Source of the DNA: an uncultured delta proteobacterium
Lineage (GTDB): Bacteria > Desulfobacterota > Desulfobacteria > Desulfobacterales > SpSt-501
Assembly: GCA_963828345.1 (NCBI GenBank)
Contig: CAWHEZ010000043.1
Location: 7,918-71,917 of the forward strand
DNA length: 64,000 nucleotides
Direction: 5' to 3'
Below, in pieces: positions 5,772 through 63,941 of the stretch. A program made the translations under genes and the position numbers. How positions within the stretch are numbered: position 1 is the first letter of the stretch; each line of letters starts with the position of its first letter. The notes beneath the pieces are model-generated. The model did no database searches. It saw nothing but the letters and a program-made list of their open reading frames with translations, and was not told the DNA's origin.

Positions 5772-5863
5772 GGGGTGTGTTGGGTGCCGGGTGTTTGGTT
5801 TTCGTGATGAGCGGGGGCTTGCCTCTTTTCCCTTTGAACCCTTGACCCCTCGATCCCTTCAAC
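5772..5863. repeat. Composite word array: GGTGTTTGG-type words (5772-5802) plus CCCTTGA/CCCCTCGA-type words (5830-5863)
   Basis: Read directly: ggggtgtgttgggtgccgggtgtttggtttt ... ccctttgaacccttgacccctcgatcccttcaac. The two blocks are not complementary to each other. It fills the spacer between stop 5760 and the ATG at 5871. Confidence 0.7.
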
Positions 5864-5870
5864 ACGACCT

Positions 5871-6761
5871 ATGATCAGCGTATACCGAGACTGGTTTCTG
5901 GCCGCGCGGCCCTGGTCCTTCACCATGACCGCCATCTCCGTCAGCGTCGGCGGCGCCCTCGCCGCCCTGGACGGCGCGTTCTCCTGGCCGCTCTATCTCC
6001 TGACGCTCGTCGGCACGGTGCTGATGCACGCGGCCAGCAACCTCATCAACGACTACGACGACGTGCGGCACGGGGTGGACGACCCCAGGGTGCCGACCGC
6101 CCGCTACCGGCCGCACCCGCTGATGGAAGGCCGGCTCACCCCCCGGCAGGTCCGGTTCACGGCCTACGCGCTCTACCTCTTCGCTGCCGCCATCGGCCTC
6201 TTTCTCGCGGCCACGCGGGGGACGGCCGTGCTGTGGCTGGGGATCGTCGGCACGGCTGCGGGAATCAGCTACACGGCCCCCCCGCTGAACTACAAGTACA
6301 AGGCCCTCGGGGAGTTTTCGGTGTTCCTGATGTGGGGCCCCCTCATGGTCTGCGGGGCGTACTACGTGCAGGCGCAGGCCGCCAGCAGCGACGCCCTGCT
6401 CGTCAGCATCCCCTTCGGGGTGCTGGTCGCCCTGGTGCTGCTCGCCAACAACATCCGCGACATCGCCTACGACGACGCCAAGGGGATCCTGACGCTGCCG
6501 ATTCTGCTCGGCCGCCGCCGCGGCGTCGGCCTCTACCTCGCGCTCATCGTCACGGCCTACGCGGCCGTGGCCGCCATGTCCGTCTTCGGCCCGCTCGAGC
6601 CCTGGTCGCTGATCGTGCTGCTGTCCGCGCCGCTCGCCGTCAAGCTCCTGCGGCAGATGGCGACCGATGTCCCGCTCGACGCGGACGCGCAGACCGCGAA
6701 GCTCGACACCGTCTTCGGCCTGCTCCTGGTCGCCTCGCTCGTGGCGGGAGTGTGGATGTGA
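5871..6761 (+). CDS. UbiA-family prenyltransferase, MenA-like (1,4-dihydroxy-2-naphthoate prenyltransferase-like)
   Basis: Polytopic membrane protein with the Asp-rich motif NLINDYDDVRHGVDD and a second DIxxD region (NNIRDIAYDD). Confidence 0.8.
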   Translation: MISVYRDWFLAARPWSFTMTAISVSVGGALAALDGAFSWPLYLLTLVGTVLMHAASNLINDYDDVRHGVDDPRVPTARYRPHPLMEGRLTPRQVRFTAYALYLFAAAIGLFLAATRGTAVLWLGIVGTAAGISYTAPPLNYKYKALGEFSVFLMWGPLMVCGAYYVQAQAASSDALLVSIPFGVLVALVLLANNIRDIAYDDAKGILTLPILLGRRRGVGLYLALIVTAYAAVAAMSVFGPLEPWSLIVLLSAPLAVKLLRQMATDVPLDADAQTAKLDTVFGLLLVASLVAGVWM

Positions 6762-7891
6762 GCGCGGCCCGCCCGCGGCCGGCGGCCATCGTCGGCACGG
6801 TCCTGCTCGCCTCCGGACTCTGGTGGATGACCTTCGCGCAGGAGCTGGCCTCGTTCTGGGTCAAGATTTCGATATCCGCATCGCTGCTGGCCGCGATCTC
6901 CCTGCTCCTGCGGCCGCCTCCGCGCGGCAGCTTCCGATGGGACGCACCGGCCCTCGCCTGGGGCCTGGCGTCCGCCGTCGTTCTTTACGGAATTTTCTGG
7001 GCGGGCAAGGCGGTCTCGACTGCGGCCTTCCCCTTCGCGGGCGGGCAGATCGGCAGCATCTACCACAAGGGGGACGGAACACCGCTCTGGACGATCGCCG
7101 TCCTGCTCTTCTGCGTCACCGGCCCGAGCGAGGAAATCTACTGGCGCGGGTTCCTGCAGCAGGCGCTGATGGACCGACTCGGGCGCTGGGGGGGCTGGGC
7201 CGCCGCGACCGCCCTCTACGCCGGCGTCCACATCTGGTCCTTCAACTTCATGCTCGTGGGCGCCGCCGCGGTGGCCGGCGCGTTCTGGGGCGCACTGTAC
7301 GCGCGCTGCGGCCGCCTGGCGCCCGTGATCGTCTCGCACTCCATCTGGAGCACCGTCATCTTCGCCGTTTTCCCGATGCGATAAGCTGCAGATAACAGCT
7401 GGATAGCTGATCGCGGTGGGCGAACGGCGGATCGCCCCCTCCCGCCGGCCCCTCCCGCTACGGGGAGGGGAGATGAGCTGCACCGCGGCCTTGATCGCCT
7501 CCAAGATCGGGCCCTGCAGGGTGCGCCACTTCGGCCGGATCGCCCCGCCTTCGGTCCACTCGAATTCCACCGCATCGTATTTTTCCGGGACGACCCGCTC
7601 CCCCTGCTGGCCGTAGATGCTCTGCGGGTAATGCTCGACGTACATCATGCGGCCGGGCGGGATGGCGAACTCCCGGCTGACGCAGGTGGCGACGTGCCCG
7701 GCGCAGCTGCGCACCGACATGCGGCTGCCGGGCACGTCCGAGACGAGGACGATCGTCGGCCGCAGGTGCGCGGCCTTCGCGCCGGGGGGTTCCGTGGAAA
7801 GGTCGTAGATCCGCAGGCGGCAGCGGCCGCTCGCAAGCTTCAGCCGCCCCCCGAACCCCGGCCAATCGTAGATGCCGTCGTGAATCAGCAT
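6557..7891 (-). CDS. Hypothetical protein; only the first ~145 codons (7891 down to ~7460) look coding, and the annotated stop is probably not the real one
   Basis: The N-terminal part (MLIHDGIYDWPGFGGRLKL...EFEWTEGGAIRPKWRTLQGPILEAIKAAVQ) has normal composition. The rest is Arg/Gly/Asp-rich antisense read-through of the CPBP and menA-like genes. A strong hairpin CCCCTCCC/GGGAGGGG sits at ~7446-7467, with an out-of-frame TAG at 7458-7460. Confidence 0.4.
   Translation of the reverse strand: MLIHDGIYDWPGFGGRLKLASGRCRLRIYDLSTEPPGAKAAHLRPTIVLVSDVPGSRMSVRSCAGHVATCVSREFAIPPGRMMYVEHYPQSIYGQQGERVVPEKYDAVEFEWTEGGAIRPKWRTLQGPILEAIKAAVQLISPPRSGRGRREGAIRRSPTAISYPAVICSLSHRENGEDDGAPDGVRDDHGRQAAAARVQCAPERAGHRGGAHEHEVEGPDVDAGVEGGRGGPAPPAPESVHQRLLQEPAPVDFLARAGDAEEQDGDRPERCSVPLVVDAADLPAREGEGRSRDRLARPENSVKNDGGRQAPGEGRCVPSEAAARRRPQEQGDRGQQRCGYRNLDPERGQLLREGHPPESGGEQDRADDGRRPRAGRAHIHTPATSEATRSRPKTVSSFAVCASASSGTSVAICRRSLTASGADSSTISDQGSSGPKTDMAATAA
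6758..7384 (+). CDS. CPBP-family intramembrane glutamic endopeptidase (CAAX protease-like)
   Basis: Motifs SEEIYWRGF, GVHIWSF and SHSIWS in a multi-TM protein. A GTG at 6758 overlaps the menA-like stop by 4 nt. The longer ORF start at 6233 lies inside the upstream gene. Confidence 0.8.
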   Translation: MSAARPRPAAIVGTVLLASGLWWMTFAQELASFWVKISISASLLAAISLLLRPPPRGSFRWDAPALAWGLASAVVLYGIFWAGKAVSTAAFPFAGGQIGSIYHKGDGTPLWTIAVLLFCVTGPSEEIYWRGFLQQALMDRLGRWGGWAAATALYAGVHIWSFNFMLVGAAAVAGAFWGALYARCGRLAPVIVSHSIWSTVIFAVFPMR

Positions 7892-7993
7892 GACGCCCTT
7901 TTCAGAACATGGAGAGGAACTGTCTTTTCCCCCAATCCCCCTCTCACAAGAGAGGAGAAACTCGGGTTGAATCGGCTGAGCCCAAAGCCCGAG

Positions 7994-8078
7994 TTCAAGG
8001 CGCGCAAGCCGTGCGGCCCGAGGCGTACTCCGGTACGCCGCAGGGCCCGCGCGGCGCCGCGCAACGCCGAAATCGGGC
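7994..8078. repeat. Copy A of an ~85-nt structured repeat (long interrupted hairpin 8008-8055)
   Basis: About 80% identical by my hand alignment (68/85) to the reverse complement of 43619-43704. The hairpin is GCCGTGC-GGCCC-ga-GGCGTAC-tccg-GTACGCC-gca-GGGCC-c-GCGCGGC. It lies just downstream, in minus-strand sense, of the cbbO-like stop. Confidence 0.7.
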
Positions 8079-8093
8079 TTTCGGCCCAGCCGA

Positions 8094-10772
8094 TCATCGC
8101 GTCAGCGCGCTGTAGACGGTTAGCAGCCGCCCCGGCAGCTCCTGCACGTCCGCGATCACGTGGTGGCGCGCCTTGCCGTAGAGCGCATCCAACTGGGCGT
8201 CCGCCGGCAGGTTGACCGTCAGGGCGTGAAACCGGATGTGCCGCCCCTGCAGCTCCAGCAGGGCGCGGCGCGTGTCCGCAACGGCGTGGGCCCCCTTGTA
8301 GCCGGTGTCGTTGGGAAACCCGTCGCTCAGGATGACGAGCAGCCGCACCCGCGCGGGCACGGCGTCCAGCTCCCGGCCGGCATGGCGGATGGCGGCCCCC
8401 AGGCGGGTGTTGCGCTGCGGCCGCAGCGCCCCGAAGCGGCGCTTGACCTCCGGCGAGAGGGACTCGCCGAAGCCCTTGATCCCGAAGTAATCCACCCCCA
8501 GGCGCCCCGTCCCGGAGAAGGCTGCCACGGCGAACGAATCCCCCAGCACCGTCAACGCCTCGCACAGGACGACGATCGACTCCTTCTCGACCTCCAGAAC
8601 CGATGCGTCCGATCCCGGCACCGGGTGGGCGGTCGAACGGGAAACGTCCACGAGCAGGAGCACCGCGACGTCGCGCCGGTGCTTCACGCGCTTGATGAAC
8701 ACGCGGTCGGAGGGCGCATCGCCCAGGCGGCGGTCCACGGCCGATTCGATCAGCTCCCGGTAGTCGAACTCATCCCCGTCCACCCAGCGCCGCAACCGTT
8801 CCACCCCCTCCGGCCGCATCCGCTCGAAGGCCTGCCGCGTGTGCCCGACCAGCACGCGGCGGCGGCGCAGCACGTCCGTGTAAAACTCCTCGTGCCCCGC
8901 GGACGGCGACGGGTGCACGCGCAGCCGCACGTGCTCGGGGAGGTAATCCCCGAGACGGTCGTCCCATTCCGGGTAGCGGTAGACGAGACCCGCATCGTCA
9001 CGGGCCGCATCCGGCCCGGACCCATCGGCGTCGAGCCCGCCTCCCGCCCGTGCCAGCTCGGGGATCAGCGCAGCGTCCGAACGGCAGAGCTCCTGGAGGT
9101 CGCGGGCGGTGAGACGGCCGCCGCCGTCCCTCAGCCGTCGGCGGAGCTCGGAGCGGCGAGCCCGGATGCCATGACGCGACAGCGCTTCCGCGAGACGGCC
9201 CACGGCGCGCTCCCGGGCGGCGTCGCCGGCCGCGGCCGGGTTGGGCCAGGGGCGCCAGCCGAACGGCGGGGTGAGGCCGCCCGCGCGCGGAGTGGCGCAG
9301 GACGCGCAGTACCGGGCGGCGAGACCCCCGGCCGCCTCGACCGGACTGGCCGCCGTGACCTCGCGCTCAAATGCCGCCGCGATCTCGGCCTCCGGCTCCC
9401 CGCCCGGAGCGGCGCCGAGCCCCAAGGCCACGCGGGCGAAGAGCTCCGCGAGCGGGTCCGCGGCGGCCCCCTCCCGTTCCTCCCGGAACACGGCCTGCAG
9501 GAGCGGGTACCACCGCCGCACGAGGCCGGGATACCCGTCCGCAAGGCAGAGGCGAATGCGGCCGAGCTCGAAGATGGTGAAGGCGTCCGCGGCAAACACC
9601 GGGTCCGGGAAACCGGACAGGAACCGGTCGATGTCCGGCCGCGCGGGGCCGGGCGGCACGGCCGCGCGACCGCCCCATCCGGCCGGGCAGAAGTCCAGCG
9701 CCCGCTCCAGCTCGAAATCGAAGGTGCCGAATTCGTGCAAGCTCGCCTCCAACCGCACCAGCAGGCGGTAGAGCCGCTCGTTCTCGTCCCGGCGGTCGAA
9801 GCGGTCGATCTCGTCCGGGAGGTAGATGGCGTCGCCGTCGGAGCAGACCATCCGACCGCGGCCGAGGGACGCCGCCTGGGCCGCCGGCAGCTCCGACAGC
9901 GGCCGGACGACGAGACCGAGCCCGGTGCGGGCGTGCAGGTAGCGGCGCAGGCGGTCCTGCACCTGCCCGCAGCCGACGCTCACCTGCAGGAGCCTCAGCT
10001 GGTCCCGGGCGGTTTCCGATTCGAGTGCGAGCGCCCGGGCGGCGGCGTCCGGGTGGCGGCGGTGCACCGCGAGCGCGTGCTGCACGAACTGCCGCAGCGC
10101 GTCCTCCCGCAGCAGCCGCAGGCCCTTTGCCATCCCGGCCAGGAACGGCTCGATCAGATTGCGGTCGACGCGGGCGAGATCCAGGAGTTCGCCCAGTTGG
10201 AAGTGCCGCCGCCGAGGGTCGAGCCCCAGCAGCGCCTTCGGCAGGAGCGCGGCAAAATTGCGGCATTCGGGGTAGCCGGCGTCCGACGCGAAGACCACCC
10301 GCAGCAGGTCGAGGTAGACCGCCGCCGCGGCCCGGCCGCCCTCTGCCAGCACGGGCCCCAGCGCCAGCAGCGGCTCACGCAGGGCGTAGCTGCCCTTGCG
10401 GCCCATGGCGTCCCAGGCGCAGGTGAAGCGCTCCAGGCACTCGGCATCCCCGTGCGCCAGCACCGGCGGCAGACACTCGGCCATGATGCGACCCAGGGTG
10501 GGGCCCGTCCGCAGCGCCGCCCGCACCCGCTCCGTGTAACTTCGCCGGGACTCGGGGCCTGCCGACCCCACCAGCTCGGCGCAGCCTTGGCCGACCGCGC
10601 GGCCGAATGCCATCTCCTCCCCGAGCGCCCAGAGGGCCTGCTCGACCAGCCAGGACATCTCCTCGGCGGTCGGCGGTGCCGGCAACCGCGCCAGACGCGC
10701 GGCGACCGCCGCGGCCAGCTCGGGGTCGGCGGTTTTCAGGGTCTCGATGGCGTCGGCGAGGAGGGCGTTCAT
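8094..10772 (-). CDS. CbbO/NorD-like protein with a C-terminal von Willebrand factor A domain
   Basis: The C-terminal VWA has a MIDAS-like motif (LLLVDVSRST ... ILSDGFPND). It has a long helical N-terminal region and sits immediately downstream of a CbbQ/NorQ AAA+ gene. Confidence 0.85.
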   Translation of the reverse strand: MNALLADAIETLKTADPELAAAVAARLARLPAPPTAEEMSWLVEQALWALGEEMAFGRAVGQGCAELVGSAGPESRRSYTERVRAALRTGPTLGRIMAECLPPVLAHGDAECLERFTCAWDAMGRKGSYALREPLLALGPVLAEGGRAAAAVYLDLLRVVFASDAGYPECRNFAALLPKALLGLDPRRRHFQLGELLDLARVDRNLIEPFLAGMAKGLRLLREDALRQFVQHALAVHRRHPDAAARALALESETARDQLRLLQVSVGCGQVQDRLRRYLHARTGLGLVVRPLSELPAAQAASLGRGRMVCSDGDAIYLPDEIDRFDRRDENERLYRLLVRLEASLHEFGTFDFELERALDFCPAGWGGRAAVPPGPARPDIDRFLSGFPDPVFAADAFTIFELGRIRLCLADGYPGLVRRWYPLLQAVFREEREGAAADPLAELFARVALGLGAAPGGEPEAEIAAAFEREVTAASPVEAAGGLAARYCASCATPRAGGLTPPFGWRPWPNPAAAGDAARERAVGRLAEALSRHGIRARRSELRRRLRDGGGRLTARDLQELCRSDAALIPELARAGGGLDADGSGPDAARDDAGLVYRYPEWDDRLGDYLPEHVRLRVHPSPSAGHEEFYTDVLRRRRVLVGHTRQAFERMRPEGVERLRRWVDGDEFDYRELIESAVDRRLGDAPSDRVFIKRVKHRRDVAVLLLVDVSRSTAHPVPGSDASVLEVEKESIVVLCEALTVLGDSFAVAAFSGTGRLGVDYFGIKGFGESLSPEVKRRFGALRPQRNTRLGAAIRHAGRELDAVPARVRLLVILSDGFPNDTGYKGAHAVADTRRALLELQGRHIRFHALTVNLPADAQLDALYGKARHHVIADVQELPGRLLTVYSALTR

Positions 10773-25273: not shown

Positions 25274-25395
25274 CAAATCCGAAATCCGAATACCGAAATT
25301 CGAAACAAATCCCAATATCGAACCCGGAAACCAATGCCGGGCGCACGACCTGAGGCTCCGCCTGTTTCGGATTTCGAATTTCGTATTTCGAATTT
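25274..25395. repeat. Word-hairpin, CGAAAT family (copy 1), inside the rib operon
   Basis: The left arm is caaatccgaaatccgaataccgaaattcgaaacaaa (25274-25309). The right arm is ctgtttcggatttcgaatttcgtatttcgaatttt (25362-25395) and abuts the ribBA stop codon. It is homologous to 63813-63941. Confidence 0.8.
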
Positions 25396-36190: not shown

Positions 36191-36264
36191 TGAGGGATCG
36201 TCTAGCGGCAGGACGACGGGTTCTGGCCCCGTTAACCTAGGTTCGAATCCTAGTCCCTCAGCCA
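36191..36264 (+). tRNA. tRNA-Gln (anticodon CUG), CCA encoded
   Basis: Folded by hand. Acceptor TGAGGGA/TCCCTCA, D stem GTCT/GGAC, anticodon stem ACGGG/CCCGT with loop TTCTGGC, T stem CTAGG/CCTAG with loop TTCGAAT. Discriminator G, then CCA. Confidence 0.9.
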
Positions 36265-36467: not shown

Positions 36468-38192
<1,725 letters not shown>

Positions 38193-38196
38193 GTGT

Positions 38197-38227
38197 CATC
38201 CGACCGATCGGACCGATCGGTCGGATG
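38197..38227. repeat. 31-nt palindrome, GATCGGACC family, between convergent gene ends
   Basis: CATCCGACCGATCGG-A-CCGATCGGTCGGATG, with two perfect 15-nt arms. It lies in the 56-nt gap between the glnS and DUF218-protein stops. Confidence 0.8.
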
Positions 38228-42682: not shown

Positions 42683-43135
42683 ATGCGACGCCTCTGGCCG
42701 AGAACACGGAGCGGGGACGGCCTGCTCCTGATGCGCCGGCTGGGCGTTGCGGTGGCCGTGCTGGCGGCAGCGGCGACCGCCGGGCCGTTGCACGCCGTGG
42801 ATTTTCTTTACTCGTGGCCCCCCAGTTCCGTCGTCGGACTGACCGGCTACGGCATCTACCAGAGCACGGACGGCGGGTCGTACCAGCTCATCGCCCAGCT
42901 CCCGTTGGGCGCACTGCCGAACCCGCAGCAGCCCTCTTACCTGGTGACCGGACTCCAAGACGACACGACCTACTATTTCGCGTCCGCCGCGCTCGCGACC
43001 ACCGGCGACGGCCCCCTCTCCTTCCAGACCTGCATCGCCATCGACACCGATGTCGTCGCGTGCGGCACCGACGATGACGGCGGGTCGTATGTGTACATCA
43101 ACTGTTTCATCTCAGCGGCGACCCCGCGACCCTGA
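42683..43135 (+). CDS. Hypothetical secreted protein with a fibronectin type III-like domain
   Basis: A signal-like segment (MRRLGVAVAVLAAAATAGPLHA) and an FN3-like pattern (W..VVGLTGYGIYQSTDGGSYQLIAQL..YLVTGLQDDTTYYFASAA). The tail is Cys-containing and hydrophobic (YINCFISAATPRP). Confidence 0.5.
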   Translation: MRRLWPRTRSGDGLLLMRRLGVAVAVLAAAATAGPLHAVDFLYSWPPSSVVGLTGYGIYQSTDGGSYQLIAQLPLGALPNPQQPSYLVTGLQDDTTYYFASAALATTGDGPLSFQTCIAIDTDVVACGTDDDGGSYVYINCFISAATPRP

Positions 43136-43618
43136 AGGCGCGGACGCGCCGCTGCGCCTCTCCCCCGCAGGCACGGCGCGCCGGCAGGCAACAACCGGTT
43201 GAGAGCACTTTTTTCTTGATTTATTCCGGAAAATTAGAGAGAAAATAGGTGTCGAAATCGGGGCGGCCGGTGTTCGCTGCGGACACCGTGCCGGCTTTGC
43301 CGAAATCACCGGCACCCAGACGGTCCCGGCTACGGCCGGAACGCTCGGTGCACTTCATCGCGGCATACGGCGTGGCGCGGCTTGGCGTGCGTGCTCTCGT
43401 CGCTCTGGAGGAGAACAGATGCCGAGATATCCAAAGGGGTGATTTCGAGTTCCAGCGGAAGTAGGCAAGGGGCTATTCGGGCAACTGCGGATTTAGTCGG
43501 TGGTGGAGGACTCTGGCGGGTTACGATCCACCCATCCTGAAAACGCCTCGACAGCCCTTGAAGCCGCGGAATGAAGCCGGCGCCGCCCCGATTTCGTCTT
43601 ACCGATGACGCCGTATGA

Positions 43619-43704
43619 GGGCCAATCTCTGCGTTGCGCTTCATCGCGCGGGCGCTGCGGCGTACATGAGTACGCCTCGCGCCGCTCGATTCGCGCGCCT
43701 TGAT
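43619..43704. repeat. Copy B (inverted orientation) of the ~85-nt structured repeat (hairpin 43643-43690)
   Basis: The reverse complement aligns without gaps to 7994-8078. The hairpin is ATCGCGC-g-GGCGC-tgc-GGCGTAC-atga-GTACGCC-tc-GCGCC-GCTCGAT. Stem differences from copy A are compensatory. Confidence 0.7.
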
Positions 43705-43845
43705 CTTGGCTCTCCTACGACGTCATCGAATCCTTCGGCACATCCGCGACACCTTTTCCGTACAACAGATCCGGGCCCCAATACCCACTCCCACGATAGC
43801 AGAAAACTAAAACGCCCCGATACTCAACCGCCCAACCCCCTTTCA

Positions 43846-44707
43846 TCACCCGAAGACCACCCCCACATACCCGACGAAGCTTTCTCCCGGGCTGCGGTCG
43901 TAGCTGGTCGCATATCGGAGCGTCTCGGCCTTCGTCGCGCCCAGGGCCCTGCCGGCCTGGATGGCGGCTGCGGCCGCCCCCGGGCAGCAGGCGTTCTGGC
44001 GGCTGCGGGCCTCCGCCATCACCCGTTGCGGGTCGAGCGCCAGCATCGCATCGATGACCCGGCGGTCGTTCTCGTCCCGGACCCAGGTGACGGCCTCGGC
44101 CCCGGTGCCGTGACCGGTGAACCCGTAGTGCTCGCCGTAGTGAGTGAGGTCGGTCGACCCGATCACCCGCAGCCCCAACCCATGCCTCCGGCACAGGTCC
44201 ACGACGAAATCGGCCACCTCCAGCGAGGCCTCGGTGGGGGCAAGGCCAGCGGCAAGAAGGCTTGCCTTCGGGAAAAAATACTTGATGAAAGGCAGCTGCA
44301 GCTCGATCGTGTTGTCCTGGGCGAAGCGCGTCGGGCGTCTCGATGCGGAACGGGAACCGGGAGCTCAGCTCGACGGCCAGCTCCGCGGCGACCGGCAGCG
44401 GCCCGAAGGGGGTTTCCCAGGACCCCGTGGGCATGAGCACGCTGGGCGAGGACGCGTGCAGGTGCGCCCCGAAGACCGCCACCACGTCCGGGGGCGGCCC
44501 GGCCGCGAGCGCCCGCACCACCTCGCAGGCGACGGCTCCGGAGTAGACCCAGCCGGCGTGCGGCACGATCCCGCCGACCGGGTTCTGGATGCCGGGCTCC
44601 CGGGGGGAGGCCTCGGCGAGAAACCGCTCGATTTCGGCCTTGCAGGCGGCTGCCGTTCCAGGGTACCAGCTGCCCGCAAAGACGGCCCGTCTCAGTTGAT
44701 CGCCCAC
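43846..44707 (-). pseudogene. AmmeMemoRadiSam system protein B (Memo-like), reading frame broken near 44324-44330
   Basis: The N-terminal part (..RRAVFAGSWYPG..GGIVPHAGWVYSG..) is in the frame of ORF 43715..44776. From ..TPDA the expected continuation FAQDNTIELQLPFIKYFFP...VADFVVDL..GSTDLTHYG.. is in the frame of ORF 43846..44217. A single extra base lies in gacgcgCttcgcc. Confidence 0.75.
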
Positions 44708-44750
44708 CGTCCGCCTCCCTTCCCGCTTCAGAGCGGATGATAGCAAAACG

Positions 44751-44813
44751 CCCACACACCAAACTTGCAATGCCAACTACCGAATACTAAACACCAAACA
44801 CCAAAAAAACACC
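44751..44813. repeat. One-armed CCAAACACC word array in the Memo-like / nifU divergent region
   Basis: Read directly: ccacacaccaaacttgcaatgccaactaccgaatactaaacaccaaacaccaaaaaaacacc. No complementary GT arm is nearby. Confidence 0.6.
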
Positions 44814-50347: not shown

Positions 50348-50378
50348 GAGCCCCCCGGAGTCGCTTTGTCGTTGCATC

Positions 50379-50410
50379 GGTCCTATCGGTCCGATCGGAC
50401 CGATAGGACC
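50379..50410. repeat. Perfect 32-nt palindrome, GATCGGACC family, inside the operon
   Basis: GGTCCTATCGGTCCGATCGGACCGATAGGACC equals its own reverse complement. It lies between the 5S-subunit stop (50424) and the sucC start (50347). Confidence 0.8.
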
Positions 50411-50423
50411 TATCTTCCTTCTC

Positions 50424-52427
50424 TTACCCCACCACGGCCAGCACGTCGCCCTTCTTCACCGAGTCGCCGCTGCTGAAGTTGAGGGCCTTGACCGTGCCGC
50501 CCGCCGGTGCGGGCAGGGCGTTCTCCATCTTCATGGCCTCGAGCACGACGATGGTTTCGCCCTCCTTCACCTTGTCGCCCACGGCCTTGACGTACTTCAC
50601 GATCATGCCGGGCATGGGGGCGGTCATGGGCGTGCCCTTGACGTCGCCGGCCGGGGCCGCCTGGGGGGCCTCGGCCTTCGGGGCTTCGGCTGCCGGGGCG
50701 GGTGCAGCCGGCGCCGGGGCCGCGACGGGTGCCGGGGCCGGAGCGGCCACGGTCGCCGCGGGGGGCGCGTACGTCACGACCGGCGGCCCGCCGAGGCCGT
50801 CGACGCCGACCTCGAAGTATTCCCCGTCCACGAACACGTTGAACTTGCGCAGGTTCCCGCTCGGGGCCGGGGCCTTCTTCTGCGGCTTTTCGACCAGCTG
50901 CCCGGCCTTGGCCTTGCGCACCAGTTCGTCCTCCCTGCGGACCTCGTCCATCGTGCGCGCCTTGACCTCGGGCGGCGGGACGTCCTTGCCGTACTTCCAC
51001 TTGAGGAACTTCAGGCCGGTCACCGGGTAGAGCGCGTAGATCAGGACGTCGTCGATGTCCTTGGCCAGGCCCTTGACGGCCTCCTTGGCCTTCTCCAACT
51101 CGGGCTCGAGCACCGAGGCGGCGCGGGCGGTGATGGCCTTTTCGCCGCGCGCGTAGCCCTTGAGGGCCTTCTTCTGCACGTCCGGGTTGATGGGCACCGC
51201 CGTCTTGCCGTAGAGGCCGTAGCAGAGGTCTTTGACCTGCTCGGTGATCCGCTTGTAGCGCTCGTCCTTGGTGTCGGAGAGCACGTTCATGACGGTCTGC
51301 ACGCCCACGATCTGGCTGGTCGGGGTCACGAGCGGGATCTGGCCGAGGTCCTTGCGCACCCGCGGCAGCTCCGCGAACACGTCGTCGATCCGGTCGACCG
51401 CGTCCATCTCCTTCAGCTGGTTGACCAGGTTGGAGAGCATGCCGCCCGGGGTCTGGTGCAGCAGGACGTTGATGTCGATGATCGACATCTTGGTGTCGTC
51501 CAGCAGGTGCTTGTACTTGGGCATGACCTCCTTCTCGAGCACGTCGTTGATCTTGGCGAGCATCTTGATGTCGAAGCCGGTGTCGCGGTTGGTGCCGAGC
51601 AGCGTCATCACCAGGGGCTCGATCGCCGCGTGGGCCGTGCGGTAGGCGTAGGGCGCCATGACCGTGTCGATGATGTCGACCCCGGCCTCGACCGCCTTGA
51701 GCATCGACAGCGCCGACATGCCCGAGGTGAAGTGGCTGTGCAGGTGAATCGGGGGCTTGACCGCCTTCTTCAGGGCGGAGATCAGCGTGAAGGCGTCGTA
51801 GGGGGCGATGAGGCCGGCCATGTCCTTGATGCAGATCGTGTCCGCACCCATGGCCTCGAGCTCCTTGGCCTTCTTCACGTAGTAGTCGATGTTGTAGACC
51901 TCGCCCCCCAGGCGCGGCTCGGTCAGGGTGTAGCAGATGCAGCCCTGGAAGTGCTTGCCGGCGGCCTTGATGGCCGGGACGACGATTTCGAAGTTGCGGT
52001 AGTCGTTCAGGGCGTCGAAGGTCCGGAAGATGTCCATGCCGTTGGCGGCCGCCCGCTCGACGAACACCTTGGCGACGTCGTCGGCGTAGTTGCGGTAGCC
52101 CACCAGGTTCTGGCCGCGCAGCAGCATCGAGAACGGGGTCTTCTTGATGTACTTCTTGAGGATGCGGATGCGGTCCCAGGGGTCCTCGTTGAGGAAGCGG
52201 TGCATCGTGTCGAAGGTCGCCCCGCCCCAGACTTCCATGGCCCAGAAGCCGACCTGGTCCATCATCTCGGCCACCGGGAGCATGTCTTCGGTCCGGCCGC
52301 GGGTCGCGAACAGGGACTGGTGGCCGTCGCGCAGCGAGAGGTCCTCGATCTTGACCGGGTTCTCCGCCTTGGGCCGCTTGGGGTCGTAGTTCATCTGGGT
52401 CATCTTGACGGCAATCTCATTGGTCAT
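50424..52427 (-). CDS. Carboxyltransferase 5S subunit fused to a biotin carboxyl carrier domain (transcarboxylase 5S / oxaloacetate decarboxylase alpha / PycB-like)
   Basis: An HMGL-like TIM-barrel N-terminus ([17 protein letters not shown]..), the conserved carboxylase domain, an Ala/Pro-rich linker, and a C-terminal biotinyl motif (LEAMKMEN). Confidence 0.9.
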
Positions 52428-55540: not shown

Positions 55541-55637
55541 CCAGGGGTCAAGGGGCCGAGGGGTCGAGGGGTCGGGTGAGCGGCGTGGCACGCGGTCACC
55601 TCCCCTTGAACCCTTGGCCCCTGGAATCCTTGACCCC
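55541..55637. repeat. Word-hairpin, GGGGTCRA / TYGACCCC family, between mcm and meaB
   Basis: The left arm is ccaggggtcaaggggccgaggggtcgaggggtcggg. The right arm is cctccccttgaacccttggcccctggaatccttgacccc and reaches the mcm stop codon. The left arm is four GGGG runs spaced by 4 nt. Confidence 0.8.
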
Positions 55638-57763
55638 TATCTCTTCTCGATCGCATTCAGCACCTGGTTGGCCGACTCGGTCACGGGGGTGCCCGGGCCG
55701 AAGACGCACGCCGCGCCGGCGCCGTGGAGGAACTCGTAATCTTTTGGCGGGATGATGCCGCCCACGACCACCAGGATGTCCCCCCCGCCCGCTTGCTTCA
55801 GGGCCTTGACCAGCTCCGGGACCAGGGTCTTGTGCCCGGCCGCCAGGGTGGAGACCCCGATGACGTGGACGTCGTTTTCGACGGCCATGCGGGCGGCCTC
55901 CTCGGGGGTCTGGAACATCGGCCCGATGTCCACGTCGAACCCCAGATCGGCAAAGCCGGACGCGATGACCTTCATGCCGCGGTCGTGGCCGTCCTGGCCC
56001 ATCTTGGCCACCAGGATCCGCGGCCGCCGGCCCTCGCGCTCCTTGAACTGATCGGTGCGCTTGCGCAGGGTCTTGATGATCTCGCTGTCGCCGTACTCGG
56101 CCGAGTACACCCCGGACACGGCCCGGGTGGTGGCGACGAAGCGCCCGAAGACCTTCTCCAGCGCGTCGGACACCTCGCCCACGGTGGCGCGCGCCCGCAC
56201 GGCGGCAATCGTGAGCTCGAGCAGGTTGCCGCCGCCCTCGGCGCCTTTCGTGAGCGCGGCGAGCGCCTGCGCCACGTCCTGCGGGTTGCGCCGCGCGCGG
56301 ATCTCTTTCAGCCGCGCGACCTGCTCGTCGCGCACGCCGGCCGAGACCTCCAGGATGTCGAGCTTCGCGTCGTCCTGGGTCTGGTATTTGTTGACCCCGA
56401 CGATGACGTCCAGCCCCTGGTCGATGCGGGCCTGGCGGCGGGCGGCCGCCTCCTCGATGCGCAGCTTGGGCATCCCGGTCTCGATGGCCTTGGCCATCCC
56501 GCCGAGTTCCTCCACCTCCTGGATGATCCGGGCGGACTCGCGGATGATGCCGTCGGTCAGCGCCTCGACGTAGTAGGAGCCCGCGAGCGGATCGATCACG
56601 CGGCAGACCTGGCTTTCCTCCTGCACGATCAGCTGCGTGTTGCGCGCGATGCGGGCGGAGAAGTCGGTGGGCAGGCCGATCGCCTCGTCGAAGGAGTTGG
56701 TGTGCAGCGACTGGGTCCCGCCGAGCACGGCCGAGAGGCACTCGAGGGTCGTGCGGATGATGTTGTTGTAGGGGTCCTGCGCCGCGAGGCTCCAGCCGGA
56801 GGTCTGGCAGTGGGTGCGCAGCATCGAGGACTGCGGGTCCTTGGGCTCGAAGCGGCTCATGAGCCGGTGCCACAGGAAGCGCGCCGCGCGCAGCATCGCG
56901 ATCTCCATGAAGAAGTTCATGCCGATGCCGAAGAAGAACGACAGCCGCGGCGCGAACTGGTCGATCGTCAGCCCGCTCCGGCGCGCGGCCTGCACGTACT
57001 CCAGCCCGTCGGCGAGCGTGAACGCGCACTGCAATACCGAGCTCGCCCCCGCCTCCATCATGTGGTAGCCGCTGATGCTGATGGTGTTGAACTTGGGCAT
57101 GTGGCGCGAGCAGTAGGCGATGATGTCCGAGACGACCCGCATGGAGGGCTCGGGCGGGTAGATGTAGGTGTTGCGGGTGAGGTACTCCTTCAGGATGTCG
57201 TTCTGGATGGTCCCGGTGAGCTGGTTCTGGCTGACCCCCTGCTCCTCGGCCGCGACGATGTACCCGGCCAGGATCGGGAGGACGGCGCCGTTCATGGTCA
57301 TCGAGACCGACATCTCCTGCAGCGGGATCTGGTCGAACAGGATCTTCATGTCCTCGACGCTGTCGACCGCGACCCCGGCCTTGCCGACGTCGCCCGCCAC
57401 CCGCGGGTGGTCCGAGTCGTAGCCGCGGTGGGTCGCCAGGTCGAAGGCGACCGAAAGGCCCTTCTGGCCGGCCGCGAGGTTGCGCCGGTAGAAGGCGTTG
57501 GAGTCCTTGGCCGTCGAGAACCCGGCGTACTGGCGGATCGTCCAGGGCCGATGGGCGTACATGGTTGCGCGCGGCCCGCGCACATACGGCGGCAGGCCCG
57601 GCAGGCTGCCCAGGTGGTCGAAGGCTTCGAGGTCCTCGGCCGTGTAGAGCGGCCTGACGGTGATGCCCTCCGGGGTTTTCCAGTTCAGCGACTCCGCCGG
57701 CTTGCCCCGCAGCTCCTTGCTCGCGAGGTCCCGCCACGTGTCGTATTCAGGGTGCTGGGCCAT
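55637..57763 (-). CDS. mcm: Methylmalonyl-CoA mutase (catalytic domain fused to the B12-binding domain)
   Basis: 708 aa with the MM_CoA_mutase barrel (..[11 protein letters not shown]..) and a C-terminal cobalamin-binding domain with DxHxxG (GQDGHDRG). Confidence 0.95.
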
Positions 57764-57880
57764 GGGTTCAGTCTCCTTGATTTGGCGGTTCGATCTTCAC
57801 GCGTATCGAAAACCCGAGATTCGCCATCAGGTGGTTTGAAAACCAAGTATCGGGCCGTCAGCCAAGGCGCTTCGACCGCT

Positions 57881-57958
57881 GGCCCGTATGCCCGTCGACC
57901 CGTGCGCCCGCAGGAACTGGACGGGCCAACGGGCCGACGGGATCGGGATCACGGCCCG
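57881..57958. repeat. Word-hairpin, CCCGTNG / CNACGGG family, between epimerase and mcm
   Basis: The left arm is ggcccgtatgcccgtcgacccgtgcgcccg. The right arm is cgggccaacgggccgacgggatcgggatcacggcccg and ends 12 nt from the epimerase stop. Confidence 0.7.
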
Positions 57959-57970
57959 AGACGCCGGTTG

Positions 57971-58375
57971 TCAGCTCCGTTCGCACAGCTCCACCAGGAT
58001 GCCATTGGTCGCCTTGGGGTGGATGAAGGCGATCCGCGCGCCGCCCGCGCCCTTGCGCGGGGTCTGGTCGATCAGCTGGATGCCCTTGGCCTTGAGCTCC
58101 GCCAGCGCCTCGTCGAGGTCGGCGACCCGGAAGGCCACGTGCTGGATCCCTTCGCCTTTTTTTTCCAGGTACTTCGCGATGGGCCCGTCCGGGGCGGTGG
58201 ACTCGAGCAGCTCGACCTCGCTCTCGCCGACCGGCAGAAAGGCGGTCGTGACCTTCTGCTCCGCCACCGTTTCGGTCCCCTGCAACGACAACCCCAGCCC
58301 GTCCGTCCAGAAATTCTTGCCCGCGTCGATGCTGTTCACGGCAATTCCCAGGTGGTCGATCTTCAGGATTTTCAT
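57971..58375 (-). CDS. mce: Methylmalonyl-CoA epimerase (VOC/glyoxalase family)
   Basis: Starts MKILKIDHLGIAV at the ATG at 58375. ..GIQHVAFRV.D...A....G and FIHPK..NGILVEL are typical of the epimerase. 134 aa. Confidence 0.9.
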   Translation of the reverse strand: MKILKIDHLGIAVNSIDAGKNFWTDGLGLSLQGTETVAEQKVTTAFLPVGESEVELLESTAPDGPIAKYLEKKGEGIQHVAFRVADLDEALAELKAKGIQLIDQTPRKGAGGARIAFIHPKATNGILVELCERS

Positions 58376-58474
58376 GGGTCCCCCTTTGTGCATCCGCATG
58401 CATGGTATGGGTTGACCGCTCGCCCGCGGCCTTCGGTTCGTCCGGACGTGCTCATGCAAGTGGGGAAGCTTATA

Positions 58475-59756
<1,282 letters not shown>

Positions 59757-59757
59757 T

Positions 59758-60805
59758 TTACTCAATCAGCATCGCGTCCCCGTAACTGAAGAACCGGTAC
59801 CCGGCGCCGACCGCCTCACGGTAGGCCGCGAGCACCGGCTCGCGGCCGGCAAAGGCGGCCACCAGCATGATCAGGGTCGACCGGGGCAGGTGGAAGTTGG
59901 TGACCATGGCGTCCACGACCTTGAAGCGGTATCCGGGGTGGATGAAGAGCGCGCAGCTGCCGGCGCCCGCCGGGACGCGCCCGTCGGCGCCCGCGGCGTG
60001 TTCCAGGGTGCGCACGACCGTCGTGCCGACCGCCACGACCCGGCCGCCGGCGGCGCGCGCGGCCGCGATGCCCTCGGCCGTGGCCGCCGGGATCGCGAAG
60101 CGCTCGGCGTGCATGCGGTGCGCGCGGATGTCCGCCACCCGCACCGGGGCGAACGTGCCGTAGCCGACGTGCAAGGTGATCGGGAGCACCCGCACCCCGC
60201 GGCCCCGCAGGCGCGCGATCAGCTCGGGGGTGAAGTGCAGGCCGGCGGTCGGCGCGGCCACGGCCCCGCGCACGGCCGCGTAAACCGTCTGGTAGGTCGA
60301 GCGGTCGGCCGCCCGGTCCGGGCGCCGGATGTAGGGCGGCAGCGGCACGTGCCCGACGCGGTCGAGCACGGCATCGAAATCGCCGTCCGCCGCGAACTCG
60401 ACCCGGAAGCTCCCGCCCTCCGCCCGGACCACGGTCCCGGTCAGCCCGCCCTCGAAGCGGATGCGGCACCCCCACCCGCGTCGGCTTGGAGGATTTGATC
60501 AGGCACTCGCAGGCGAAGCCGCCCCCGGCCGAACGCGTCCCGCCGGCGTAGTCGATCAGGAAGACCTCGACGCGGCCGCCGGAGTCCTTGCGCCCGAGCA
60601 GCCGGGCCGGCACGACGGCCGTGTCGTTGACCACGAGCGCGTCCCCGGGCTCGAGCCGCTCCGCAAGCGCGTCGAACCGGTGGTGGGCCAGCGCGCCGGT
60701 GCGGCGGTCGAGCCGCATGAGCCGGGACCCGTCGCGGCGATCCGCCGGGGTCTGTGCGATCCGCTCGGGGGGAAGCTCGTAGTCGTAGTCGTCCAGGGAG
60801 AACAT
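59758..60805 (-). pseudogene. queA: S-adenosylmethionine:tRNA ribosyltransferase-isomerase, reading frame broken in a 5-nt homopolymer at 60469-60473
   Basis: The N-terminus MFSLDDYDYELPPERIAQTPA...CLIKSSKPTRVG is in one frame. The expected ..RIRFEGGLTGTVVRAEGGSFRVEF..VGHVPLPPYI..TAGLHFT..FFSYGDAMLIE is in the next frame. The junction is GTGGGGGTGCC in gene sense. Confidence 0.85.
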
Positions 60806-61122: not shown

Positions 61123-61446
61123 AACGAACAGAGTTGCTTGCGGATAAATCCCCGCGCGCGGAGTGTGGCGCCATGCGCTTCAACCTCCGGCCAACGCCAT
61201 GTTCCGGCGATCGGACCTTCACCGCCGAAGACCACGAGGGACCCGTTTATACCGTCGGGGCCGGCCGGTTGTCAAAACGGGGTGCGCGGGCATAGATTGA
61301 CGCTGCACCGGACGGGCCTATATTGTACCGTCGGTCAACCCCCACTCTCCTCGCTGAAAGGTGACCCCATGCGCATGCGCGTCGTCGTTCACTACCTGGT
61401 GGCCACGGTCATCCTGACGGTCTACGGCGGTCAGGTCTGACCGTTC

Positions 61447-62907
61447 ATGGAAAGCCTGCCCCCCGTGAAGCTGGGGGCTCACATCCTGGCGGCCTTCGCG
61501 GCCGCGCTGCTCCTGCGGTACCCGCTTGAAAAACGATTTGTCGCCGACGCCGAGGAAATCGCTCAGCCGGCCCGCCAGTTCGCGCTCGACCAGGGCCTCG
61601 GGGCGGTTGCCGCCCTGGTCGCCGCCGGGCTGAACCACGTTCGCTTCGGGTTCCCCGCCGGCAGCGTCCTCAGCCTGATCCTCGGCGTCATGTTCTACAG
61701 CTTCTTCGTTGCCCTGGACACCGCGCTCGCCCGGGAGCACGCGATCATTCTGAAGGTGGCGCGCGAGGGCCGGGCGCTGCCCGTCCCGCACCGCCTCTTC
61801 CCGATGACGCGACGCTTCACGCTGGTGGCGGTCGCGACCGCGGTCTGCGTGTCGGCGGTCAACGTGCTGGTGATCGCGCGCGACATGAGCTGGCTCACCG
61901 GGATCGGCGACGACCCGGCCGCGCGCACGGAGGCCATCCTCTCGGTCACCGGCGAGGTGATCTTCGTCATGGTCGTCACGCTCGGCCTGGCCGCGAATCT
62001 CATCGTCTCCTACTCCCGCAACCTGAAGCTGCTCTTCCGCAACGAGACCAGCGTGCTCGAGCAGGTCACCCGCGGGGACCTCAGCCGCATGGTGCCGGTG
62101 GCCACGCGCGACGAGTTCGGGCTGATCGCCGGCCACACCAACACCATGATCGAGGGGCTGCGGCACCGCACCGAGCTCATCTCCGCGCTGAAGCTGGCCG
62201 AGGAGGTGCAGCGCACGCTGCTGCCCGCCGGGCCGCCGCAGGTCCCGGGGATCGACGTGGCCGGCGCGAGCATCTACTGCAACGAGACGGGCGGGGACTA
62301 CTACGACTACTTCGTGCTGCCCGGTGGGCGGCTGGGCATCGCGGTCGCGGACGTGGCCGGCCACGGCATCGACGCGGCGCTGTTCATGGCCTCGGCGCGC
62401 GCCTTCATCCACGCGGAAGCCCAGGGGTTCAGCAGCCCCTCCACGCTCGCCCGCGACGTGAACCGCTACGTGGCCCGGGACTGCGGCCCGACCGGCCGCT
62501 TCATGAGCATGTTCTTCCTCGAAATCGATCCGGCGCTGAAAACCATGCGCTGGGTGCGGGCCGGGCACGAACCGGCGCTGATGGTCGACCCGGGCGCAGG
62601 CGATTTTCGTGAGCTCGGCGGGGAGGGCATGGCGCTCGGGGTGGAAGACGAGGTGGCGTACCGCGACTACGCGCTGACGGGGTGGGGACCCGGGACCGTG
62701 GTCGTCATCGGCACGGACGGGATCACCGAGAGCCGCAGCCCGGCCGGGGAGTTCTTCGGGGCGGCGCGCGTGCGCGAGCTCGTCCGCGCGCACGCCCACC
62801 GGCCGGCCGAGCACATCCAGGCCGCCGTCATCCGCGCCGTCGAGGCGTTCCGGGGGGACGGCCCGCAGGAGGACGACATCACGCTGGTCGTCGTCAAGCT
62901 GGCCTGA
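61447..62907 (+). CDS. Membrane-bound HAMP domain / PP2C-type (SpoIIE/RsbU-like) serine phosphatase
   Basis: N-terminal TM segments, a HAMP-like linker (..VTRGDLSRMVPVATRDEFGLIAGHTNTMIEGL..), and a SpoIIE/PP2C core (GGDYYDYF..IAVADVAGHGIDAAL..GTDGITE). Confidence 0.85.
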   Translation: MESLPPVKLGAHILAAFAAALLLRYPLEKRFVADAEEIAQPARQFALDQGLGAVAALVAAGLNHVRFGFPAGSVLSLILGVMFYSFFVALDTALAREHAIILKVAREGRALPVPHRLFPMTRRFTLVAVATAVCVSAVNVLVIARDMSWLTGIGDDPAARTEAILSVTGEVIFVMVVTLGLAANLIVSYSRNLKLLFRNETSVLEQVTRGDLSRMVPVATRDEFGLIAGHTNTMIEGLRHRTELISALKLAEEVQRTLLPAGPPQVPGIDVAGASIYCNETGGDYYDYFVLPGGRLGIAVADVAGHGIDAALFMASARAFIHAEAQGFSSPSTLARDVNRYVARDCGPTGRFMSMFFLEIDPALKTMRWVRAGHEPALMVDPGAGDFRELGGEGMALGVEDEVAYRDYALTGWGPGTVVVIGTDGITESRSPAGEFFGAARVRELVRAHAHRPAEHIQAAVIRAVEAFRGDGPQEDDITLVVVKLA

Positions 62908-63055
62908 CCGGCTGTTGAAAAACGGCGTCTCGGTCCGTGATCCGGCGTTGCGCGGCCTTTGGCCATGCTCACATACTGCCGGGTATGCTGCGCCGGCCAA
63001 AGAGCCGCGCGCCTTGGCTGACGGCCCGATACGGGTCTTTCAACACCCGGCCACG

Positions 63056-63812: not shown

Positions 63813-63941
63813 CAATCGAAATCCGAAATTCGAATATCGAAATTCGAAACAAATTCGAACACCAAATGACTCAAACCCGGTTTTTAAAATTATAGAATTT
63901 CAATTGGGAGCTTGTTTCGGATTTCGAATTCGTGCTTCGAA
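63813..63941. repeat. Word-hairpin, CGAAAT family (copy 2)
   Basis: The left arm is caatcgaaatccgaaattcgaatatcgaaattcgaaacaaa. The right arm is cttgtttcggatttcgaattcgtgcttcgaa and ends 2 nt from the stop of the partial ABC ATPase gene. It is homologous to 25274-25395. Confidence 0.8.

Follow-up and report, generated by a model that had tools for sequence, protein, structure and literature searches.

In bacteria, MITEs (short for miniature inverted-repeat transposable elements) form stable stem-loops in transcripts and are located at gene 3′ ends (PMC10969869). The ERIC/IRU elements of Enterobacteriaceae and Vibrionaceae are MITE-like, multi-copy, non-coding imperfect palindromes of 127 bp that occupy transcribed intergenic DNA as well as the 3′ ends of genes, are conserved beyond the needs of a selfish repeat, and have been reported to exert orientation-dependent effects on mRNA fate (PMC10969869). 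Here we analyze a comparable family through two of its copies, A and B, which lie in a stretch of 64,000 nucleotides (nt) from an uncultured delta proteobacterium (assembly GCA_963828345.1, contig CAWHEZ010000043.1), called the window throughout. Like ERIC, the family consists of multi-copy, non-coding imperfect palindromes, but there is no sequence similarity between the two. The target duplication of ERIC is TA, while the family studied here has duplications of 5-6 bp. To our knowledge, only some Gammaproteobacteria carry ERIC, whereas the present family extends over about eight phylum-level groups. Judged by analogy, its behavior most resembles that of ERIC and other bacterial MITEs, and we consider it probable that A and B are members of a MITE family carrying a conserved hairpin module.

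The family has been seen before. Gmet_R1001-R1024, given as “predicted short RNA elements” by the 2009 Geobacter genome paper (PMC2700814, Additional file 4), belong to the same family as the window elements, judging from sequence comparison. Like the window family, they are intergenic, multi-copy, and unexplained in function (PMC2700814). On their opposite strand, the parts follow one another as in the window family: arm, CAAGRTCAAGGC, stem, GAGGCGTA(G/C)C..., ACGCMGAKATTG, arm. When aligned with B, they score 77-92, compared with 51 ± 5 for shuffles, or 5-8 standard deviations (SD) above; when aligned with a copy from Geobacter sp. OR-1, itself a model match of 70 bits, they score 115-125, more than 13 SD above shuffles. 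The apex differs, being mostly GRCGTAGC-GC-TGCTACGCC in the Geobacter elements and GGCGTAC-N4-GTACGCC in the window family. Nevertheless, the flanking boxes and a GGCGTA/TACGCC core are common to both, around a central palindrome that reads GRCGTAGC..GCTACGCC in the Geobacter elements, and Gmet_R1022 and R1023 carry GCGTACC..GGTACGCC. The Gmet_R elements were described in Geobacteraceae and Desulfotalea only (PMC2700814). Earlier descriptions did not class them as mobile DNA or as a MITE, nor as a family that crosses phyla, and they are not in Rfam. What is new is the mobile classification, the transposase link, and the occurrence beyond a few Desulfobacterota. Other described MITEs, including Correia/NEMIS of Neisseria, RUP, BOX, and QMITE2, likewise end in terminal inverted repeats, show target duplications, and lack coding capacity (PMC10969869). 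They differ from the family in their sequences, ends, and target duplication lengths. We know of none among them with a core common across phyla.

In the window, the central stretches of A (7994-8078, plus strand) and B (43619-43704, minus strand) align without gaps at about 81% identity. An earlier note on this DNA had described two gapless copies about 80% identical, with loops TCCG and TCAT and three compensatory pair changes in a shared interrupted hairpin, and each of these points was confirmed. A repeat search returned the same pair as the longest inverted repeat of the window (7989-8076 with 43622-43709; 88 nt, 81% complementary). The core, GAGGCGTAC-N4-GTACGCCGCAG, has exactly two matches in the window, with 0.00 expected in 100 shuffles, and its loop is TCCG in A and TCAT in B. 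Folding gives one interrupted hairpin common to A and B. From A to B, three pairs differ by compensated changes: in the middle stem C-G is replaced by G-C, and in the outer stem G-C is replaced by A-T and C-G by T-A. In addition, B has an A.G mismatch where A pairs T.G. The size of 85 nt given in the earlier note applies to the center of the element but not to its extent: A and B are imperfect palindromes of about 130 nt (7969-8098 and 43598-43729), of which the first-described stretches are only the centers. Between A and B, the outer arms have unrelated sequences, although within each copy they are self-complementary. The left outer arm of A aligns to the arm consensus of the family, GACGGCTTCGTAAAAAGTCCAAG. 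Throughout, the sense strand is the strand on which A reads plus and B reads minus. The parts of the two copies are as follows.

7969-8098, plus strand: copy A, whole imperfect palindrome (MITE-like hairpin); family covariance model R1, 115 bits, E = 2.4e-26; fold −90.8 kcal/mol, z = −9.2
7969-7994, plus strand: left outer arm of A, GAATCGGCTGAGCCCAAAGCCCGAGT, resembling a terminal inverted repeat; pairs with 8073-8096 in the fold
7995-8005, plus strand: box 1 of A, TCAAGGCGCGC, a bulged CAA and then the GGCGCGC helix strand; near-invariant in two family alignments
8020-8043, plus strand: apical core of A, GAGGCGTAC-TCCG-GTACGCCGCAG, by pattern match
8059-8073, plus strand: box 2 of A, GCGCAACGCCGAAAT, holding the bulged AAC; from family alignments and the fold
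8073-8096, plus strand: right outer arm of A; its tip TCA (8094-8096) is the opposite-strand TGA stop of a cbbO-like VWA gene
43598-43729, minus strand: copy B, whole imperfect palindrome; R1, 113.9 bits, E = 4.3e-26; fold −79.2 kcal/mol, z = −8.7
43655-43678, minus strand: apical core of B, GAGGCGTAC-TCAT-GTACGCCGCAG, by pattern match
43693-43703, minus strand: box 1 of B, TCAAGGCGCGC, from sequence and the A/B alignment
43625-43639, minus strand: box 2 of B, GCGCAACGCAGAGAT, from sequence and the A/B alignment

The earlier note implied a two-copy transcript element specific to its loci, and this did not hold, as the element is a dispersed, multi-copy repeat with terminal inverted repeats and, in relatives, target duplications. 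When representative genomes were scanned with the 20 specified bases of the core, matches were returned for at least 120 genome stretches, which record titles assign to about eight phylum-level groups. Those within Desulfobacterota include Desulfobacterales, Desulfobulbaceae, Desulfoarculaceae, and Geobacteraceae, and the other groups listed are Myxococcota, Gemmatimonadota, Rokubacteria, NC10/Methylomirabilota, Acidobacteriota, Rhodothermales, and Bacteriovoracaceae. One complete Sorangium chromosome (Myxococcota) has three core sites, while copies number at least 12 in one Myxococcales metagenome-assembled genome (MAG) and 3-5 in several other MAGs. No copy was found in the viral contigs or in the plasmids searched. 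All copies have a common architecture: a variable outer arm, box 1 (CAAGGCGCGC in the family), a variable stem, the core, the complementary stem, box 2 (GCGCAACGC / GCGCAACGCNGANAT), and the complementary outer arm, in a non-coding unit of about 130-170 nt. Some variants have an extra small hairpin (CCCCCGCC..GGCGGG) before box 1 in the left arm (loci L011, L020, L108, and L117), others have 25-50-nt insertions after the core in the right inner arm (L012, L065, L013, L032, and L036), and L023:2600-3470 is a four-unit tandem array of a composite of about 240 nt. The family covariance model R1 scored A at 115 and B at 114 bits and also found a diverged relative in the window, copy C. Comparison with Rfam matched no family to the element: at the gathering threshold, the sole match in the window was a tRNA gene (36191-36261, plus strand, 58 bits), and under relaxed conditions (E ≤ 10) nothing relevant was found over 7800-8300 or in eight related loci.

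The pairing of the hairpin is under selection, as the earlier note had concluded from the stem substitutions of two copies. Covariation statistics, also proposed there, were computed on an alignment of 38 diverse copies, with the structure taken from per-sequence folds projected onto the alignment; the same data were used to build R1. Pairing was kept in the additional copies, not broken. Both sides had changed in 36 of the 49 pairs, and there were 280 compensated cells compared with 93 ± 8 in shuffles. The covariation score was 0.397, against 0.147 in shuffles and 0.06-0.12 when partners were slid by 1-3 columns. This pairing is kept while arm identity between copies is only 0.33-0.37. In the outer stem, the duplex energy of an arm with its own partner is −27.5 kcal/mol, compared with −12.0 with a foreign arm, and in the inner stem these values are −9.4 and −5.0 kcal/mol. 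The inner stem, 25-45 nt from the ends, has double changes in 9 of its 10 pairs, and the core stem covaries too (GAAGCGTAC..GTACGCTGCAG in L038; CATAC..GTATG in copy C). Covariation of this strength shows that pairing is selected. In addition, the asymmetric internal loops are fixed across lineages (bulged CAA versus AAC; GA opposite GCA). Since the halves keep these fixed differences, the pairing is no by-product of a recent inverted duplication, and compensated pairing together with fixed asymmetric loops indicates that the pairing itself is selected, beyond what an inverted duplication would pass on. In a plain MAFFT alignment of 90 copies the variable arms were misaligned, so that RNAalifold detected no more than the apical hairpin; the per-sequence folds took its place.

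The evidence for mobility comes from the ends of the family. In genomes with many near-identical copies, similarity stops sharply at the unit ends, where short flanking direct repeats vary from copy to copy. For example, the flanking repeats are 5 bp long in the Myxococcales MAG (TAGAC, GTAGC, AGAGC, CTGGC, and TCCTC) and 6 bp long in Desulfobacterota (AAATAT, ATATTT, ACCATT, AATATT, AAATAA, ATCCTT, ACCTCT, AAAATT, and TAACTT). An automated duplication test on 30 copies gave 5 at 6/6 and 3 at 5/6 matching positions, where 0.1 and 0.2 were expected. Termini of related copies read GAYGR...YCRTC, and the outer arms pair in A, B, and C, as the terminal inverted repeats of a MITE do. The size of about 130-170 nt also fits a MITE, for which the upper limit is about 500 bp, as does the lack of coding capacity, seen in the absence of a codon-position GC signal and in indels that are not multiples of three. 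In the lineages that duplicate their targets, the unit consists of a left terminal repeat (e.g., GATGAACTCGTAAAAAGTC), a spacer of about 7 nt, and then the hairpin, whose arms hold that repeat twice more, once in direct and once in inverted orientation. A scan of metagenomes for the left terminal repeat yielded 48 short elements that were complete, at 48-256 bp. Their interiors are of several unrelated kinds, most of them are flanked by perfect 6-bp duplications, and copies of the hairpin core are among them (L135, L169, L183, L224, L229, and L240).

A candidate partner was also found. L234:808-2705 is a 1.9-kb insertion sequence (IS) with perfect 20-bp inverted repeats, GATGAACTCGTAAAAAGTCG, the same sequence as the MITE terminal repeat; its terminal repeat matches the left repeat of the Desulfobacteraceae-type hairpin MITE at 19 of 20 positions. 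Its 582-aa open reading frame (ORF) has a DUF772 plus DDE_Tnp_1 architecture (Pfam DUF772 and DDE_Tnp_1_6/DDE_Tnp_1), while the window elements encode nothing. The best NCBIfam match of this ORF is the IS1182 family transposase NF033551. The match extends over profile positions 40-485 of 488, but its score, 181.9 bits, falls short of the curated cut-off of 270. Transposase homologues adjoin the same terminal repeat in L121 (60% identity) and L199 (52%). Within L121-L240 (e.g., L123, L127, L132, L140, and L164), at least five other families of short elements have the terminal repeat GATGAAYTCGTAAAAAGTC, with 6-bp duplications of ANNNNT-like targets and with different palindromes as interiors (e.g., GTCATTCCGGCGAAAGCCGGAATCCAG... 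and GTCATTGCGAGGAGCGTAGCGACGAAGCAATC...). As several hairpin-MITE families share a terminal repeat, one IS1182-like transposase family appears to move the whole set. The IS itself has no hairpin module, which makes the module a passenger between the ends, one of several carried. A candidate composite element in L035 was rejected, as the ORF between its ends is ResB, a host gene, and no transposase.

Several observations weigh against this reading of A and B as MITEs. No target-site duplication or additional terminal repeat is recognizable around the four window copies, which are taken to be of mobile origin because they belong to the family. Neither the window nor L001-L120 yielded a transposase homologue, and the IS partner was seen for the Desulfobacteraceae-type terminal repeat only, with the NCBIfam score of 182 against the cut-off of 270. 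Across phyla, the terminal repeats are less well conserved than the 24-nt core, and because the IS of L234 is without the hairpin module, transposition alone cannot explain this. Lastly, the strand preference is ambiguous. Folded as RNA, the sense strand is the more stable of the two in 88 of 94 copies, with a mean advantage of 8.2 kcal/mol, and yet G.U and A.C are nearly equal among consensus pairs, at 79 and 71 when one conserved U.G pair is set aside. A stronger bias, 233 G.U against 15 A.C, was discarded as overstated given these consensus counts and the 212 G.U of the antisense folds. Mismatches are purine-purine on the sense strand and pyrimidine-pyrimidine on the antisense strand, and the widespread subfamily GUACGUU can pair by G.U on the sense strand only.

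These features raise the question of whether the hairpin module is the functional unit of structured non-coding RNAs that form a family, be they small RNA genes or elements acting in cis within mRNAs, with the terminal repeats merely spreading it. This explanation overlaps with the MITE reading, and the two are not mutually exclusive. The strong covariation with fixed asymmetric loops would suit it, as would a core conserved over about eight phylum-level groups and more than the arms, the more stable sense RNA with its purine-purine mismatches, and the G.U pairing of the GUACGUU subfamily, and the Geobacter authors likewise took the elements for short RNAs (PMC2700814). However, scans for promoters and terminators found no sigma-70-type promoter and no intrinsic terminator at or in the element, and there is neither a conserved gene association nor an Rfam family. 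Most copies near gene 3′ ends are antisense to the gene, so co-transcription would yield the weaker-folding strand. Together with the nearly balanced consensus pairs, and with other MITEs that have the same terminal repeats around quite different hairpin interiors, this makes an RNA family in its own right unlikely in our view. It is more improbable still that the palindromy is unselected, having arisen by inverted duplication or arm-to-arm gene conversion with both arms binding one transposase. The outer arms are indeed transposase-type terminal repeats, which must co-evolve, and MITEs that fold back over their whole length are common (PMC10969869). However, the halves are no mirror images, as box 1 CAAGG and box 2 AACGC, and likewise GA and the opposite GCAG, differ in all lineages, and no recent duplication or conversion has made them symmetric. 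In addition, the inner stem covaries, with the double changes given above, and own-arm energies are better than foreign-arm energies.

An imperfect palindrome with conserved extrahelical bases and one favored strand also calls to mind single-stranded DNA sites that are recognized as hairpins, such as those of REP/REPIN-RAYT HUH systems, the ends of IS200/IS605, and integron attC, and some loci (e.g., L023 and L038) have same-orientation clusters. REP/REPIN elements are palindromes of 20-40 nt with a GTAG-type head, a RAYT gene, and no target duplication. The element studied here is about 130 nt long, has no GTAG head and no recurrent neighboring gene, and does have target duplications. REP/REPIN and attC depend on HUH or tyrosine-recombinase chemistry and have defining end motifs, and these mechanisms do not produce variable 5-6-bp duplications; for this reason, a site of this kind is largely refuted. 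The comparison with attC fails also because the boxes are internal and not complementary to each other as RYYYAAC/GTTRRRY pairs are, the element is dispersed, and the one array seen, the L023 cluster, is a tandem duplication of a composite unit of about 240 nt. No RAYT or integrase neighbor was found, and the demonstrated partner is a DDE transposase. We regard a single-stranded DNA site of this class as very improbable. To a tiny protein-coding element, which the earlier note had kept as a caveat, we attach almost no weight. Mechanical ORFs overlap the region, but copies differ by indels of 1 and 2 nt, the 4-nt loop varies freely, and there is no third-position GC signal, while real genes in the window stand out with values of 0.85-0.95. 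By eye only, readings of the boxes as a K-turn, a sigma-54 promoter, an IHF site, or a LexA-type operator gave no fit.

The position of the MITE-like hairpins relative to genes also shows a pattern. On one side of A is the stop of the cbbO-like VWA gene (8094..10772, minus strand), and on the other is the next minus-strand ORF, with its ATG at 7891. The non-coding gap that holds B is 710 nt long and separates an FN3-like gene (42683..43135, plus strand) from a minus-strand Memo-like gene. B lies downstream of the Memo-like stop at a distance of about 117 nt, compared with about 460 nt for the stop of the FN3-like gene. The earlier note had proposed that the same sense of the element is transcribed downstream of the cbbO-like and FN3-like genes. 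The geometry is correct, in that one and the same element strand would be copied by read-through from both. However, this strand is the one that folds less well across the family, and the gene nearer to B is the Memo-like one, which would transcribe the other strand. In A, C, and a further element of the window, D, the terminal TCA of the right arm supplies the stop of a convergent gene. Over loci L001-L100, about 38 long opposite-strand ORFs among 85 evaluable copies end 0 to +2 or +11 to +14 nt into the right arm, while about 15 sense ORFs among 83 copies end likewise near the left terminus. The capping stops are T|GA at the right tip and a TAA inside CGTAAAAAG, 11-14 nt further in. The right end of the element has a tendency to coincide with a convergent gene's stop codon. 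No gene family recurs as a neighbor; only ABC ATPases, histidine kinases, sigma-54 activators, and similar genes do.

Some features of the neighboring genes were observed along the way. The Memo-like gene (43846-44776, minus strand) is split over two frames, from 44776 to about 44340 and from 44364 to 43846, whose products match Pfam Memo positions 3-108 and 121-268, respectively; it is either a frameshifted pseudogene or an assembly indel. In 6557-7891, the codon-position GC signal moves to another frame at around 7400. Of the 444-aa minus-strand ORF, just the part between 7891 and about 7400 resembles coding sequence, and 6760-7384 fits a plus-strand frame within ORF 6233..7384, so that this region holds either two convergent genes or another frameshift. 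The Moco riboswitch model RF01055 matches 7880-8012 (minus strand) with 23.8 bits against a gathering threshold of 36 (E = 0.0007 in a 171-nt search). The match lies directly upstream of the ATG at 7891, and its outer helix borrows part of the left arm of A; it is probably spurious because the downstream 170-aa ORF has no Pfam match.

Besides the two close copies, the 64-kb window has two diverged ones.

62905-63043, minus strand: copy C, diverged member; R1 match at 62909-63043, 37 bits, E = 6e-7; fold −74.3 kcal/mol, z = −5.2
57836-57980, plus strand: element D, tentative member; repeat of 57836-57870 with 63009-63043, 89%; fold z = −2.9

C keeps both boxes (CCAAGGCGCGC and GCGCAACGCCGG), while its apex is swapped for GCAGCATAC-CCGGCA-GTATGTGAGC; a relative with 80% identity is found in a deltaproteobacterial MAG (L043:1156-1268). 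Its terminal TCA (62905-62907, minus strand) is the TGA stop of the gene at 61441..62907 (plus strand). D has its outer arms and box 1 in common with C and a different interior, and its terminal TCA (57971-57973) is the stop of the gene at 57971..58474 (minus strand). The membership of D is tentative because it scores only 9.4 bits with R1. The window also has other repeats, all intergenic. An AT-rich repeat, AAATCCGAAATTCGAATAYCGAAATTCGAAACAAAT..., occurs twice (25275-25322 and 63819-63866, 85% identity) in a genome with 67% GC. Runs of 8-nt units of the CCCCTYGA type (GGGGTCRA on the other strand) are found in both orientations at 5829-5870, 55543-55642, and 59720-59777. A palindromic repeat, …CATCCGACCGATCGGACCGATCGGTCGGATG…, is present at 38169-38227 and, inverted, at 50375-50433, with 71% identity over 59 nt. 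Among coding sequences, the highest similarity, 74%, is to a locus of NC10/Methylomirabilota.

For the MITE family, we envisage a non-coding element of about 130-170 nt in which terminal inverted repeats surround a conserved “passenger” hairpin module. Copies would be moved in trans by IS1182-like transposases, by cutting or copying followed by staggered insertion, and the arms of each lineage would co-evolve with the transposase of that lineage. The GC-rich copies of the window may then be old, immobile relics of two or three subfamilies. With less certainty, the selected molecule would be a folded single strand. This may be a transcript of the element acting inside host mRNAs, through their processing or stability or by insulating neighboring genes, or it may be a single DNA strand that folds during mobilization. 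As a more speculative step, one that we hold to be possible but doubtful, box 1, the core hairpin, and box 2 could be a functional structured RNA or folded DNA strand that is bound by a widely conserved cellular or transposition factor and that MITEs with differing terminal repeats have brought into eight or more phylum-level groups. Selection for an effect at the 3′ ends of transcripts of the host would then lie behind the orientation-biased position on the stop codons of convergent genes.

The family explains a repeat in the Geobacter annotation that had been unexplained since 2009, and it links this repeat to a transposase family and to a hairpin module present in many environmental phyla. 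For genome annotation, recognizing it keeps such hairpins from being labeled as riboswitches, small RNAs, or terminators one locus at a time. It also raises a testable question, as a 24-nt core inside a selfish repeat outlasts the transposase-binding ends across phyla. The capping of stop codons of neighboring genes in a preferred orientation is a second puzzle beside this conservation. The cross-phylum core and the orientation-biased capping of stop codons are the points most worth following up.

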